DNA of 64,000 nt, taken from positions 64,001 to 128,000 of the forward strand of contig CAVYRH010000004.1 in assembly GCA_963770835.1 (NCBI GenBank), written 5' to 3'. The DNA comes from an uncultured Pseudomonadota bacterium (GTDB lineage: Bacteria; Oederibacteriota; Muellerivitia; Muellerivitales; Muellerivitaceae). Shown piece by piece: positions 4,396-9,623 of the stretch. The position numbers and the translations under genes were made by a program. Below the pieces are notes generated by a model. It made no database searches. It had not been told where the DNA came from and saw nothing but the letters and a program-made list of their open reading frames with translations. The first letter of the stretch is position 1. The number at the start of each line of letters is the position of its first letter.

Positions 4396-5769
4396 ATGAA
4401 TTGGAAGAAAAGCCCGAGGTTAGCCATGCATTGGCGCACTACGGATGAGGGAAAAGTGGAATGCAACCTCTGCCCGCGCCACTGCAAGCCCCACGAGGGC
4501 CAGTTTGGTTATTGCAAAGTCCGCGGCACGGTGGAGGGGCGGCTCCATACCTTTAATTACGGAATGTCCGTCGGCGCCACGGTGGAGACCATCGAAACGG
4601 AGGCCATCAATCATTACGCGCCCGGCACCCGCATCCTCAGCGTGGGGAATATCGGCTGCATGATGTCCTGCAGTTATTGCCAAAATTGGGATTCCTCCCA
4701 AATCCGGCATTTAAACCCCGACGCCGTTCGGGAATACACCCCGGAACAGATCGTCCAACTCTGCCTGGACCACCGGATTCCCATGATTTCCTGGACCTAC
4801 AATGATCCCGTCGTCTGGCACGAATTCGTGTTGGAGACTTCCCGTTTGGCCCAACAGCGGGGAATCAAGACCCTTTATAAATCCGCGCTCTATATTGAGC
4901 GGGCCCCCCTGGAGGACCTTATCCCGGTCATGGATATTTTTAGCATCTCGCTCAAGTCCATGGACGACAACTTTTACAAAAGATATACCAAAGGCCGGCT
5001 CCAACCCGTGTTGGACGGGATCAGGCAAATCCATGGCTCCCAGCACCGCAAGCACCTCGAGATCAGCCAGCTTCTCGTGACCGGGCTCAACGACCGCATG
5101 GAGGATATCCAGAGAACCATTGATTGGGTCCTAGGAAACCTGGGGACCGAAGTTCCAATCCATTTCGTCGCCTTCCACCCCGCCTACGAATACACCTCCG
5201 TGGAAAGGACGCCGGTGGAAACCCTCAAGGCGGCCAAGCGGATGGCCATGGAACAGGGAATCCGCCATTGCTACCTTGGCAACGTTTACGAGGACAAGAT
5301 GAGCGACACCCTTTGCATCCATTGCCGGAACACACTGGTGACCCGCTTTGGGCTCACCGTGGAGGTCTGCGGCATCGATCCGGAAGGAAGATGCCGCCAG
5401 TGCGGTAAGCCCTCGCCGATCCTTTATCCCCATGGGAACCTTCCCATCACCCTGGAGCATTCCTTCGGCCCGGAACTTCGGCAGGAAGAACAAGTTTGGA
5501 GCAGGGAAGTGAACAGCATCCACATCGAATGCGGGCCGGGAACCCGGGAAGCCTGGCTTGAAATCAAGGGAATGGGAAGCGACCGGCGGGACGTCTTTAA
5601 GCTGGGGGACGGCCTGAGCCGGCGGATTGTTTCCAAATCCAACCGCTCCGAAAGGGGGGTGCTGGTCCGGTGGGAACAGGGGGAAGATATCCGGATATTG
5701 CCGGTGCTGGACCGGGCCCATTTCCCCATGGCCGAACCCGCCGCCCTCAAGGCGGTGCCCCTTGGATAA
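4396..5769 (+). CDS. AmmeMemoRadiSam-type radical SAM enzyme with ~110-aa C-terminal extension
   Basis: N-terminal CNLCPRHC..GYCKVR; radical SAM CMMSCSYCQNW; TYNDP; FHPAY; YLGNV; C-terminal CxxC..CxxC; AGGAGG RBS. Confidence 0.85.
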   Translation: MNWKKSPRLAMHWRTTDEGKVECNLCPRHCKPHEGQFGYCKVRGTVEGRLHTFNYGMSVGATVETIETEAINHYAPGTRILSVGNIGCMMSCSYCQNWDSSQIRHLNPDAVREYTPEQIVQLCLDHRIPMISWTYNDPVVWHEFVLETSRLAQQRGIKTLYKSALYIERAPLEDLIPVMDIFSISLKSMDDNFYKRYTKGRLQPVLDGIRQIHGSQHRKHLEISQLLVTGLNDRMEDIQRTIDWVLGNLGTEVPIHFVAFHPAYEYTSVERTPVETLKAAKRMAMEQGIRHCYLGNVYEDKMSDTLCIHCRNTLVTRFGLTVEVCGIDPEGRCRQCGKPSPILYPHGNLPITLEHSFGPELRQEEQVWSREVNSIHIECGPGTREAWLEIKGMGSDRRDVFKLGDGLSRRIVSKSNRSERGVLVRWEQGEDIRILPVLDRAHFPMAEPAALKAVPLG

Positions 5770-6889
5770 GAAGGATTTCAGCGTTTATTCCAAAGCCCTG
5801 CACCACAAGGTGGAGGCCCCGGACGCCAAGCCCGCGGTCACGCCCCTTTACCAGACCAGCGCCTTCGAGGCCGGTTCGCCTTATTTTTATTCCCGGAAGA
5901 ACAACCCCAATTGCGAGGAACTGGAACAGGTCATCGCCTCCTTCGAGGAAGGGGCCCATTGCCTTTCCCTTTCCACGGGCATGGCGGCCATTTCCCTCAC
6001 CCTTTCGTACCTCAAGCCGGGGGACCAGCTCGTCATCAACCGGCATCTTTACGGCTGTTCCTATAAACTCTTCGAGCGTTTTTGCGCCCGCTACCAGGTC
6101 GAACTCCTCGTGCTGGACCTGACCAACCCCGAATCGCTCAAGCGGTTCTCGGCCAGGACGAGGATGGTTTTTTTCGAGACCCCCACCAACCCTTTCCTCT
6201 TTACCGTCCCCATCCAGGCGGTTTCCCGGGCGGTGAAACAGGCCCGGCCCGATGCCCTGGTGGTGGTGGACAACACTTGGGCCACAAGCTTTCACCAAAA
6301 ACCCCTGAAGCACGGAGCGGATATCAGCCTTTACAGTGCCACCAAGTTCTTCAGCGGCCACAGCGATGCCATGGCCGGGTTCCTTTGCGTGGACGATAAC
6401 GTCCTTTACGAGCATTTGAAATCCGAACGATTCTATACCGGAAGCATCCTTTCCCCCTTTCCGGCCTGGCTTATCCGCCGAAGCCTACAGACCTTCGCCC
6501 TGCGCATGCGCCACCATCAGGAAATCACTGGGAAAATGGCCGACTTCCTGAAAAAGCGGAAGGAAATCACCAAGGTCTACCTGCCCGAGTTGGGTGGGCA
6601 GCTGGAAGGCTACGGGGGGATCCTGTTTTGCGAGCTCAACGAAAGCTTGAAGGACCGGTACCAGCTTCTTTCCCGCTCCCTGGAACTTTTCAACACCGGA
6701 ACGGGGATGGCTTGTGTCACTTCCATGATCGCCCAGCCCTCGACCGGCAGCCACGCCTCCTTGTGCGCCCAGGAACAGGAGGCGATGGGCATCAAGCCCT
6801 CGCTGGTTCGCCTTTGCTTCGGCCTGGAGGAGGAAAGGGACTTGATGGCGGATTTGGCTAATGGGTTTGAAAAGATACAGGGGGCCTAG
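5762..6889 (+). CDS. PLP-dependent Cys/Met-metabolism (cystathionine gamma-synthase/lyase-like) enzyme
   Basis: PLYQTSAF, YSRKNNP, STGMAA, ETPTNP, DNTW, SATKFFSGHSD (PLP Lys); TTG start at 5762 overlapping the radical SAM stop. Confidence 0.85.
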   Translation: MDKKDFSVYSKALHHKVEAPDAKPAVTPLYQTSAFEAGSPYFYSRKNNPNCEELEQVIASFEEGAHCLSLSTGMAAISLTLSYLKPGDQLVINRHLYGCSYKLFERFCARYQVELLVLDLTNPESLKRFSARTRMVFFETPTNPFLFTVPIQAVSRAVKQARPDALVVVDNTWATSFHQKPLKHGADISLYSATKFFSGHSDAMAGFLCVDDNVLYEHLKSERFYTGSILSPFPAWLIRRSLQTFALRMRHHQEITGKMADFLKKRKEITKVYLPELGGQLEGYGGILFCELNESLKDRYQLLSRSLELFNTGTGMACVTSMIAQPSTGSHASLCAQEQEAMGIKPSLVRLCFGLEEERDLMADLANGFEKIQGA

Positions 6890-8379: not shown

Positions 8380-9623
8380 TCCGTTTCCACTATCCCGGGC
8401 CTTGCAGGGAGCTGGCCCAGCGGAAACTGCTGAATCTTCCCGTCGCCCTCTTTCACGAGGAATCGGTCCAGGAAGCCCAGAGGTCCTTTTCCGGAAAGAC
8501 CCTTTGGAACGTCCATTTGTCTGACCGGCTTTTTTTTGACGCTGGCGGCCTGGCCCTTTTAGCCAAGGCCTTAAAAGGTTACTCCGGAAAGGCTTCCACC
8601 CTTACCTTCGAGTTGGAACTTTCCGAAGCGTTGTACCGGGATTACTACTCCCTGGGCGCTGCCCGCAGCGGCCGCGGGACGATTCCCCTGCCGGTTAGGG
8701 CCGTTCGGGAGGAAGGCGGGGAAGGGGAGGAAACCCTCACCCTTTCCTTTCAAAACACGGTGACGGAAAACTTGTCCCTACCCGATTCCCTGGCGTCTTC
8801 CGGCCCGGTGGAAACCCCCACCCAATTGCTGTCGGTTTACGGAAGCGAGTTTGACCTGCTTTTCGCCAACCAGATGCTGCTCTTTTCCACTCTGGCCCGG
8901 CGCATCCGCTCGTCGCCTCGGGCCTTGTTGGGCCTATTCACCCAAAGACATGTGAAATCCAAGGCCAAGCGCGTGGCCCTGGCCTACAAGGCGATCCATC
9001 CTTCCGCCCAGGTCCATCCCACGGCGGTGGTCGAGGGGTCGGTCATCGGGGAAGGCTGCGTGGTGGGGGCTTATTGCGTTGTGCGATACAGCTTTCTCGG
9101 GAAGCGGGTGCAGCTCAAAGACGGTGCGAAGGTGGAATTCAGCGTGGTGGGGGACGACAGCTTCCTCATGCACGACCTGGCGCTGGTCCGCTGCCACGTG
9201 GAAGACCAGGTCTTCCTCATCCACGGACCCTACCAGTTTTCCCTCTTCCACTCCCATAGCGCGGCCTTCGCCACCATCATGATGGATTACCGCGCGGACG
9301 GCAAACCGATCAAGGTGATGACGCAGGGAGGCCTTATGGAATATGGAGGAAGATTTTTGGGGGCCGTCCTTCAGGAGTATTCCAAATCCCTGGGGGGAAG
9401 TTTATTGGCGCCGGGAATCGTGGTTCCCGGAAAAGCCTGGCTTTCGGCCGACCTGTCGCAGGTTCATAAAAACCCCATAACCGCTGCGGAACCTTTTAAG
9501 GCAATACCCACCGATTCCCCTCCGGGCCAAAGAAGGGGTTTGAAAACGAAAGACAAACGATTCCTTGGGACGGGATCCAGGAGAACGATGAAAAAGCCGC
9601 GCAAGCCAGAAATGAAATATTAA
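8376..9623 (+). CDS. hexapeptide-repeat (left-handed beta-helix) protein, possible acyltransferase
   Basis: IHPSAQVHPTAVVEGSVIGEGCVVGAYCVVRYSFLG...; real start most likely the ATG at 8376 (ATGA overlap, GGAGG upstream), not 7728. Confidence 0.7.
   Translation: MIRFHYPGPCRELAQRKLLNLPVALFHEESVQEAQRSFSGKTLWNVHLSDRLFFDAGGLALLAKALKGYSGKASTLTFELELSEALYRDYYSLGAARSGRGTIPLPVRAVREEGGEGEETLTLSFQNTVTENLSLPDSLASSGPVETPTQLLSVYGSEFDLLFANQMLLFSTLARRIRSSPRALLGLFTQRHVKSKAKRVALAYKAIHPSAQVHPTAVVEGSVIGEGCVVGAYCVVRYSFLGKRVQLKDGAKVEFSVVGDDSFLMHDLALVRCHVEDQVFLIHGPYQFSLFHSHSAAFATIMMDYRADGKPIKVMTQGGLMEYGGRFLGAVLQEYSKSLGGSLLAPGIVVPGKAWLSADLSQVHKNPITAAEPFKAIPTDSPPGQRRGLKTKDKRFLGTGSRRTMKKPRKPEMKY

Follow-up and report, generated by a model that had tools for sequence, protein, structure and literature searches.

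Do five abutting genes in the genome of an uncultured Pseudomonadota bacterium form one system and, if so, what does this system make? The genes lie in a 64,000-nucleotide stretch of contig CAVYRH010000004.1 (assembly GCA_963770835.1, positions 64,001 to 128,000), here called the window, and encode a radical S-adenosylmethionine (SAM) enzyme, a pyridoxal 5'-phosphate (PLP) enzyme, a membrane desaturase, a paralogue of Lgt and a hexapeptide (beta-helix) protein. A first-pass annotation had read them as one operon that builds an unusual, possibly sulfur-containing moiety and attaches it through the Lgt-like enzyme to a membrane acceptor. We report that the cluster is mobile, horizontally spread and recurs in many unrelated bacteria, that it is a core module joined to an exchangeable attachment module rather than a fixed five-gene pathway, and that the Lgt paralogue is paired by co-occurrence with small membrane peptides carrying a Cys close to the C-terminus. 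We give an even chance to the reading that the four-enzyme core makes an unusual acyl lipid, which the dedicated Lgt paralogue would transfer to the Cys of these peptides. The architecture is well supported and the Lgt-peptide pairing is supported by co-occurrence, while the chemistry is proposed from sequence comparisons.

The cluster and its boundaries

The first-pass annotation described five genes coupled by an 8-nt overlap, a 0-nt gap, a GTGA and an ATGA junction. All four junctions were re-read as stated (for the second gene TTG was taken as the start codon, chosen from the overlap with the gene before) and the five same-strand open reading frames were confirmed, but the extent had been drawn too narrowly: the same inserted block continues with two genes for Cys-tail peptides and one for LysE. 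The features, in window coordinates and with the basis of each assignment, are:

4267..10936, no strand: inserted block between a YiiX-like gene and a DUF5060 gene (empty site in the same-genus genome G001)
4396..5769, + strand: radical SAM enzyme, sister branch of AmmeMemoRadiSam, TIGR04337 (profile, alignment, tree)
5431..5766, + strand: C-terminal domain of the radical SAM enzyme, about 110 aa (alignment)
5762..6889, + strand: Cys/Met-metabolism PLP enzyme, own subfamily (profile, alignment)
6890..7630, + strand: membrane desaturase-family enzyme (profile, His boxes)
7627..8379, + strand: Lgt paralogue (profile, alignment, fusion in L085/P0119)
8376..9623, + strand: GlmU-like hexapeptide (beta-helix) protein, predicted acyltransferase (profile, structure model, fold match)
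9646..9810, + strand: 54-aa membrane peptide, candidate substrate of the Lgt paralogue (pattern scan, alignment)
9895..10272, + strand: 125-aa membrane protein, second candidate substrate of the Lgt paralogue (pattern scan, alignment, ribosome-binding site)
10311..10898, + strand: LysE-type exporter (profile; not conserved with the cluster)

The radical SAM protein matches TIGR04337 with 324.4 bits (cut-off 220), the PLP enzyme PF01053 (E 1.6e-89), the desaturase PF00487 (E 1.9e-21), the Lgt paralogue PF01790 (E 1.1e-18, 68 bits, cut-off 24.9) and the hexapeptide protein PF00132 (28.9 bits, cut-off 27). Except for the TIGR04337 match, none of the five proteins reaches an NCBIfam equivalog cut-off.

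In G001 (locus L127) the YiiX-like and DUF5060 flanking genes adjoin directly, with 12 bases between their last codons, and positions 4267-10936 are therefore an insertion. That the cluster is not a housekeeping unit is borne out by this empty site together with separate housekeeping copies in the genome. The housekeeping lgt is on contig C7 in an lspA-lspA-lgt-pseudouridine synthase context (neighbours named from our own sequence reading), a second, shorter and canonical AmmeMemo-type radical SAM gene is at C4:402358, and the Memo and AMMECR1 genes are both on C11:7088-8496, unlinked to the cluster. The canonical enzyme on C4 is not adjacent to Memo and AMMECR1 either, and linkage is a weak test of membership in this genome. 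By our sequence reading, two tandem lspA-like signal peptidase II genes stand ahead of the housekeeping lgt (G000:C7:124153-125114), and the second LspA could matter for processing of the Cys-tail peptides.

The Lgt paralogue and the extended radical SAM enzyme are each present in one of 99 genomes of the phylum, namely this one, and the hexapeptide protein has just three weak beta-helix matches in 40 relatives. The PLP gene is the sole full-length PF01053 member of the genome, and three same-genus genomes (completeness 98, 98 and 84) have no full PF01053 gene. We found no sigma-70-like promoter and no match in the plasmids or viral contigs searched; the terminator count is at chance level and GC content is uninformative. 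No RNA run was listed as containing the region. In three soil runs it is covered by short DNA contigs that show no joints, and none spans the whole.

One core in two architectures

For the hexapeptide protein, 175 homologues were found among 8000 candidates scored, and the 120 listed are 43-70% identical, with named sources including Planctomycetes, Cocleimonas, Ca. Thiodiazotropha, Sphingomonas, Ca. Brocadiae and Geobacteraceae; the family was not found in the 401 sampled genomes of one class. A metagenome scan with an alignment of 43 homologues gave 75 loci, 53 of them distinct at 90% identity and many too short to display the whole cluster. These were divided by identity of the hexapeptide protein to the query, and not by partner genes, into type A (48 loci with at least 43%) and type B (27 loci with at most 39%). 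The complete set of five genes is seen in 10 of the 75 loci, all ten distinct at 90% identity (in two the radical SAM gene is cut by the contig end), and six keep the gene order and strand of the window. The homologues are thus syntenic elsewhere, and tests of the proteins against the housekeeping MetB, Lgt and AmmeMemoRadiSam clades did not group them there, two points on which the first-pass annotation had made its reading depend.

Among the type-A loci of at least 10 kb (n=12), Lgt is present in 11, the PLP enzyme in 10, the desaturase in 10 and the radical SAM enzyme in seven. The corresponding numbers for all 48, many of which are short contigs, are 29, 16, 21 and 12, with c5 (a membrane protein, see below) in 16 and a ketosynthase (KS) in none. 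The 27 type-B loci have no Lgt; instead there is a ketosynthase in 15, an acyl carrier protein (ACP) in 16, a saccharopine-dehydrogenase-like protein in 19, MMPL in 12 and IorA in 14, together with the radical SAM enzyme in 13 and the PLP enzyme in 14. Their usual order is FabZ, KS-like, KS, FabG, ACP, hexapeptide, reductase, desaturase, MMPL, IorA, IorB, radical SAM and PLP, the hexapeptide gene directly following the ACP gene. A DesA-type desaturase can stand in for the His-box desaturase, one locus (L098) has only the hexapeptide, desaturase, IorAB, radical SAM and PLP genes, and one type-B protein is named from Bdellovibrionales.

The proposal that the five genes are one unit consequently holds in part. 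They recur together, but the four non-Lgt enzymes also occur without Lgt in type B and a radical SAM branch occurs without the other four; because of this we describe the cluster as a core with an exchangeable attachment module. The proposal is further supported by a complete Lgt-hexapeptide fusion protein (L085, identical to P0119). No longer Lgt fusions were found at E 1e-30, in a search that is insensitive since the P0119 fusion itself was not recovered.

Type-B relatives carry the gene set of highly reducing type II polyketide synthase (PKS) and fatty acid synthase (FAS) clusters (KS/chain length factor, FabG, FabZ, ACP, MMPL), whereas none of those genes is in the window. In the literature searched we found no described PKS/FAS cluster that adds IorAB and such a radical SAM, PLP and beta-helix set. 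Loci L110-L113, L115-L117, L119, L094, L100 and L120 are type II FAS/PKS clusters carrying the same core, with a KS having Cys-His-His, a KS-like partner without the Cys, FabG, FabZ, a long ACP, reductase, desaturase and MMPL; some also have a B12 radical SAM or an acyltransferase-3 gene. A third context is seen in L108 (3063-10038), where the hexapeptide and desaturase genes are accompanied by genes for a fatty-acid hydroxylase, an F390-synthetase-like ligase and FabH-like, 3-beta-hydroxysteroid dehydrogenase-like and metallo-beta-lactamase-fold proteins; here the radical SAM-PLP pair is divergent from the hexapeptide-gene set.

Cys-tail peptides co-occur with the Lgt paralogue

Both small genes downstream, absent from the first-pass annotation, encode a basic residue, a transmembrane helix, a Cys and a short tail. 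In the 54-aa peptide these are a Lys, 23 uncharged residues, Cys44 and a 10-residue tail. The 125-aa protein, whose gene has a clear ribosome-binding site, has an N-terminal zinc ribbon, hydrophobic segments and a last helix that ends in a Cys (Cys120) plus five residues. As controls we used 42 loci from a genome-collection scan with the single radical SAM protein, all of the canonical type (26-40% identity) and without partner genes. At a hydropathy cut of 2.0 the peptide pattern gave 38 matches in 23 of the 48 type-A loci (322 kb), two in the 27 type-B loci (318 kb), one in the canonical AmmeMemo loci (566 kb) and nine in the 4.58-Mb genome, two of these being the window's own. At a cut of 2.5 the numbers were 26, 0, 1 and 2, respectively, and 24 of the 26 type-A matches lie within 2.5 kb of cluster genes. 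Leaving aside L083, where the match is far from the cluster, 22 type-A loci bear a peptide, 20 of them distinct at 90%, and an additional peptide in L049 was missed by the length filter.

A scan blind to Cys, for small open reading frames ending in a hydrophobic helix, found the tail Cys in 33 of 35 type-A cases vs 8 of 78 in type B, controls and genome together (39/45 vs 23/149 at a looser cut); the matches overlap and the loci are related, and p-values are overstated. When 28 chosen peptides were aligned, the Cys was the sole invariant column at a mean identity of 20%. In 25 of the 28 the charged residue that comes first ahead of the helix is K/R; 16-37 uncharged residues follow, and the tails after the Cys (2-11 residues) share no motif beyond it. 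The canonical lipobox, [LVI][ASTVI][GAS]C as given in PMC12462473, is present in one of the 28 and in neither window peptide, a rarity that would explain the need for a dedicated Lgt. The peptide Cys, we infer, would face outward like a lipobox Cys, with a bulky residue before it. The membrane acceptor postulated for the Lgt-like enzyme in the first-pass annotation has in this way been given candidates, by the pattern scan and the Cys-blind test, and that the Lgt paralogue modifies the peptide Cys appears reasonably probable.

The c5 gene encodes a membrane protein of approximately 215 aa with several membrane passes (weak PilS/RegB-like membrane domain; L047:4326-4982, L049:10188-10826, L071:1995-2657 and 13 more type-A loci). 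It usually stands directly before a zinc-ribbon Cys-tail peptide and was not found in this genome.

We aligned the Lgt paralogue to E. coli Lgt and to the genome's own Lgt. It keeps R131, G142, E166, Y198, R202, E206 and R209, the equivalents of E. coli R143, G154, E202, Y235, R239, E243 and R246, and thereby retains the residues that hold the phosphatidylglycerol head group according to PMC8689077. If Cys is counted as a natural variant of N146, it also keeps five of six positions that PMC13251419 describes as essential; the 179 Lgt sequences surveyed there may include this paralogue group. In 20 rows R131, G142, R202, Y198, R209 and C134 (the N146 position) are invariant, Y22 (equivalent to Y26) is found in most, and K89 and H138 are newly invariant. 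The Lgt equivalog TIGR00544 is not reached (34.9 vs a cut-off of 118.9). The likeness to Lgt lipidation (E. coli Lgt, PDB 5azb) comprises the family PF01790, the seven residues just named and the basic residue, helix and Cys of the candidate substrates. The differences are that the Lgt is here a second, cluster-borne copy in which His103 is replaced by an aliphatic residue and K89 and H138 are new, and that the candidate substrates mostly lack the lipobox, have the Cys 2-11 residues from the C-terminus and often carry a zinc ribbon in front.

The core enzymes

The radical SAM enzyme has CxxxCxxC at residues 88-95, and its core is flanked at either end by more conserved Cys motifs. It also has an additional C-terminal domain with invariant W368, H376, R409 and D439-R-A-H442, for which no credible match was found in Pfam, PDB sequences or the Atlas. 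In a quick tree of the core alone, 39 extended sequences stand apart from 23 canonical sequences of approximately 340 aa (Shimodaira-Hasegawa-like approximate likelihood ratio test, SH-aLRT, 99), with types A and B interleaved. The core passes the TIGR04337 cut-off as in the AmmeMemoRadiSam system (TIGR04337, Memo, AMMECR1); the separate clade, the extra domain, the location of Memo and AMMECR1 on another contig and the second, canonical enzyme in the genome set it apart. The closest solved relative is the pyruvate formate-lyase (PFL) activating enzyme (E 1.3e-5), and the alignment to the top 14 or so members of a 50%-identity library extends along the whole protein, tail included. The extended form was found in 2 of 134, 0 of 71 and 0 of 351 genomes in random samples of three other phyla. 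Radical SAM and PLP genes are nearly always adjacent. When the radical SAM gene was taken as the starting point in place of the hexapeptide gene, the only genomes found outside were G200 and G201, in whose polysaccharide loci a CapK/PaaK-like adenylate-forming ligase forms one protein with this radical SAM branch. The 933-aa fusion lies in exopolysaccharide clusters (L125:9269-12067 and L126:11304-14102; also P0134), and a second, free ligase of that kind adjoins it.

The PLP enzyme keeps K195, Y43, R45, R350 and an invariant Y97-G98-C99. Its likeness to methionine gamma-lyase (MGL) and cystathionine lyases (PF01053) covers the PLP lysine, Y43/R45, YGC and the C-terminal Arg, and its best single-sequence PDB matches are MGLs. 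The differences are a short N-terminal loop, the replacement of the methioninase KD (K240-D241) by R223-F-Y225 and the Ser339-equivalent, which is Gly or Ala in 17 of 20 rows and Ser in three (for YGC and K240-D241 as MGL marks see PMC11568061; for the active-site role of Ser339, PMC9307983). An invariant Thr314 beside this position might substitute. The score is 245 bits against a TIGR01328 cut-off of 549.7, and the protein looks like a lyase or synthase with a pocket of its own, not a plain methioninase.

In the desaturase the His boxes H51, H55-H59, H89-H92-H93, Q196-H197 and H223-H226-H227 are invariant in 20 rows, which places it in the membrane fatty-acid desaturase superfamily; the predicted reaction could be desaturation, hydroxylation or other.

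The hexapeptide protein was modelled with a predicted local distance difference test (pLDDT) score of 90.6 as a nucleotidyltransferase-fold domain followed by a left-handed beta-helix with an invariant FLIHGPYQ (H283), D304, R306 and D308; conservation across types A and B is concentrated in the beta-helix. The best fold match is ST0452 (5z09; Z 25.1, root-mean-square deviation 3.7, 283 aligned, 12% identity, residues 2-359), with whole-length matches also to eIF2B subunits and GMPPA. A GxGxR-type signature marks the sugar-phosphate nucleotidyltransferases. No such motif is conserved here (alignments A1 and A6) and the TIGR03992 score is 25.3 vs 292.1. The protein shares its fold and beta-helix with archaeal GlmU-like ST0452, GMPPA, eIF2B gamma/epsilon and LpxA/LpxD, and differs from them in identity (10-12%), in lacking a conserved signature and in its own FLIHGPYQ. 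We predict an acyltransferase, by analogy to known beta-helix enzymes.

Proposed mechanism and alternative explanations

We propose that the radical SAM and PLP enzymes would share a single amino-acid substrate of Met/homocysteine type, from which the PLP enzyme would eliminate to give a 2-oxo acid (and possibly a thiol). IorAB, a 2-oxoacid:ferredoxin oxidoreductase encoded directly upstream in many relatives, or a host equivalent would convert the 2-oxo acid to an acyl-coenzyme A, and may also feed electrons to the radical SAM cluster. The beta-helix protein would then transfer an acyl group, the desaturase would oxidise the chain, and from the phospholipid-type donor so formed the Lgt paralogue would link the lipid to the peptide Cys as a thioether. 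In type B the steps before Lgt would feed a type II synthase and MMPL exporter instead. We place the work of the core on a lipid and not on the peptide mainly because the core persists where synthase and exporter replace Lgt and peptides; that it makes or tailors a lipid seems likely, and sulfur in the new moiety seems rather unlikely. Identities correlate pairwise for PLP-Lgt (0.64), PLP-radical SAM (0.61), Lgt-desaturase (0.52) and PLP-desaturase (0.51; p 0.002 or less, values that kinship inflates).

Several observations weigh against this scheme. Two correlations are weak and not significant, that of Lgt with the radical SAM enzyme (0.11, p 0.16) and that of the radical SAM enzyme with the desaturase (0.18, p 0.10). 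The G200 and G201 loci lack the other four genes, generic PLP homologues being all that was found elsewhere in these genomes, and L082 has no desaturase gene. There is no IorAB in the window, IorA is present in three and a 2-oxoacid dehydrogenase E1 in four of the 48 type-A loci, and the only IorAB homologue of this genome (24% identity, on C5) is unlinked. Since the PLP enzyme departs from the methioninase KD and, in most rows, from Ser339, two of three methioninase marks, its substrate is not fixed by them. The peptide filter was devised after the peptides had been seen, some of its matches are duplicates and the loci are not independent; L054, L055 and L083 have the Lgt paralogue and no peptide in the flanks examined, with 9 of 12 long type-A loci having one. 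In the Lgt paralogue the His103 position before Gly-Gly is Leu, Met, Ile or Val, once Thr, whereas the natural replacements reported in PMC13251419 are Y, W and F, and the equivalents of His196 and Arg73 are also lost.

The loss of His103 would fit an alternative to which we assign a fairly low probability, namely that the core makes a soluble metabolite or sugar decoration (an unusual amino acid or acylated sugar), the Lgt paralogue and peptides being a non-catalytic membrane, sensing or resistance accessory. The hexapeptide protein shares the two-domain fold of sugar-nucleotide enzymes, polysaccharide loci contain the radical SAM branch as a fusion with a ligase, a LysE exporter is present in the window and c5 resembles sensor membrane domains. 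However, the invariant Arg/Glu/Tyr/His/Lys set of the Lgt paralogue looks catalytic, the peptides keep an invariant Cys while otherwise 20% identical, the desaturase, synthase, ACP and MMPL point to a lipid, and LysE is found in none of the 75 loci.

Less probable is that the peptide itself is the substrate of the radical SAM, PLP and desaturase enzymes and receives an ordinary diacylglyceryl group from the Lgt paralogue, with a tiny modified lipopeptide left after cleavage. Precedent comes from ribosomally synthesised and post-translationally modified peptides lipidated through the lipoprotein pathway (DAG-RiPPs; PMC13056109), which like our candidates are small, gene-encoded and have a Cys after a hydrophobic stretch beside tailoring enzymes. 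There are several peptide copies per locus, with variable tails, a related radical SAM type occurs in predicted peptide-processing systems of different gene content (PMC7159879), and the PFL activating enzyme acts on a protein. DAG-RiPPs, as described in PMC13056109, use the housekeeping Lgt, a canonical lipobox and an MNIO acting on the peptide; here the Lgt is dedicated, no MNIO (DUF692) enzyme was found among the genes of the inserted block and the enzymes are also found without peptides, type B having the same four with Lgt in 0 of 27 loci and peptide-like matches of 0-2. Moreover, the tails share no motif beyond the Cys, which would face away from cytoplasmic enzymes.

Marginally less probable again is a role of the peptides as carriers or sulfur donors, in which the lipid is joined to the Cys as an intermediate, C-S cleavage releases a thio-lipid and the peptide takes the place of the type-B ACP. 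Cys-conjugate cleavage is an established thiol route in gliotoxin and lincomycin biosynthesis, the core includes a member of the PLP C-S lyase family, and peptides plus Lgt vs ACP plus synthase are mutually exclusive. Against this, the PLP enzyme is kept in type B without peptides and is tied to the radical SAM gene, and it needs a free alpha-amine and is without an export signal. That housekeeping genes (metB/mgl, lgt, AmmeMemo radical SAM, glmU-like) came to stand in a row by chance, for which the PLP gene as the genome's only full-length PF01053 member could be cited, is refuted to near certainty by the synteny in unrelated loci, the separate housekeeping copies, the empty site and the restriction to one of 99 phylum genomes.

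Neighbouring genes

LysE was rejected as a core member, given its absence from the 75 related loci; its gene lies inside the inserted block and is missing at the empty site. Upstream, three tandem overlapping alpha/beta-hydrolase genes are followed by a YiiX-like permuted papain (568-3676); these were likewise rejected, since 0 of 75 loci carry them and the empty site in G001 retains three of the four, lacking the third hydrolase. Downstream are short sequences (13170-13320 and 14800-15050) that belong to dispersed intergenic repeat families, since the genomes of relatives contain numerous copies with 75-90% similarity, and a small gene pair on the minus strand (14496-15378) that by sequence reading resembles a ParE/RelE-type toxin and a Phd-like addiction-module antitoxin.

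Implications

In the literature searched, mostly without subscription papers, we found no description of the cluster and no paper giving a reaction for the AmmeMemoRadiSam-type family; the cluster is real, conserved, mobile and apparently undescribed. Tentatively, and at somewhat less than an even chance, it would represent a second, cluster-encoded bacterial protein-lipidation route, in which a divergent Lgt with a rebuilt active site would load a non-lipobox, near-C-terminal Cys of small membrane peptides with a lipid made for the purpose. A new carbon-sulfur or carbon-carbon bond in this lipid would be formed by the radical SAM enzyme, PLP lyase and IorAB, the same chemistry being plugged into type II synthase clusters and, via the CapK-like fusion, polysaccharide clusters. 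If true, this lipidation system would have an Lgt, an acceptor motif and a lipid of its own, whereas the known lipoprotein and DAG-RiPP routes use the housekeeping enzyme and the lipobox. The cluster is also a compact, clonable context with named candidate substrates in which the function of AmmeMemoRadiSam-type radical SAM enzymes can be approached. Finally, a single core is combined with exchangeable attachment modules, which points to a family of cell-surface lipids among bacteria of soil, freshwater and marine habitats.

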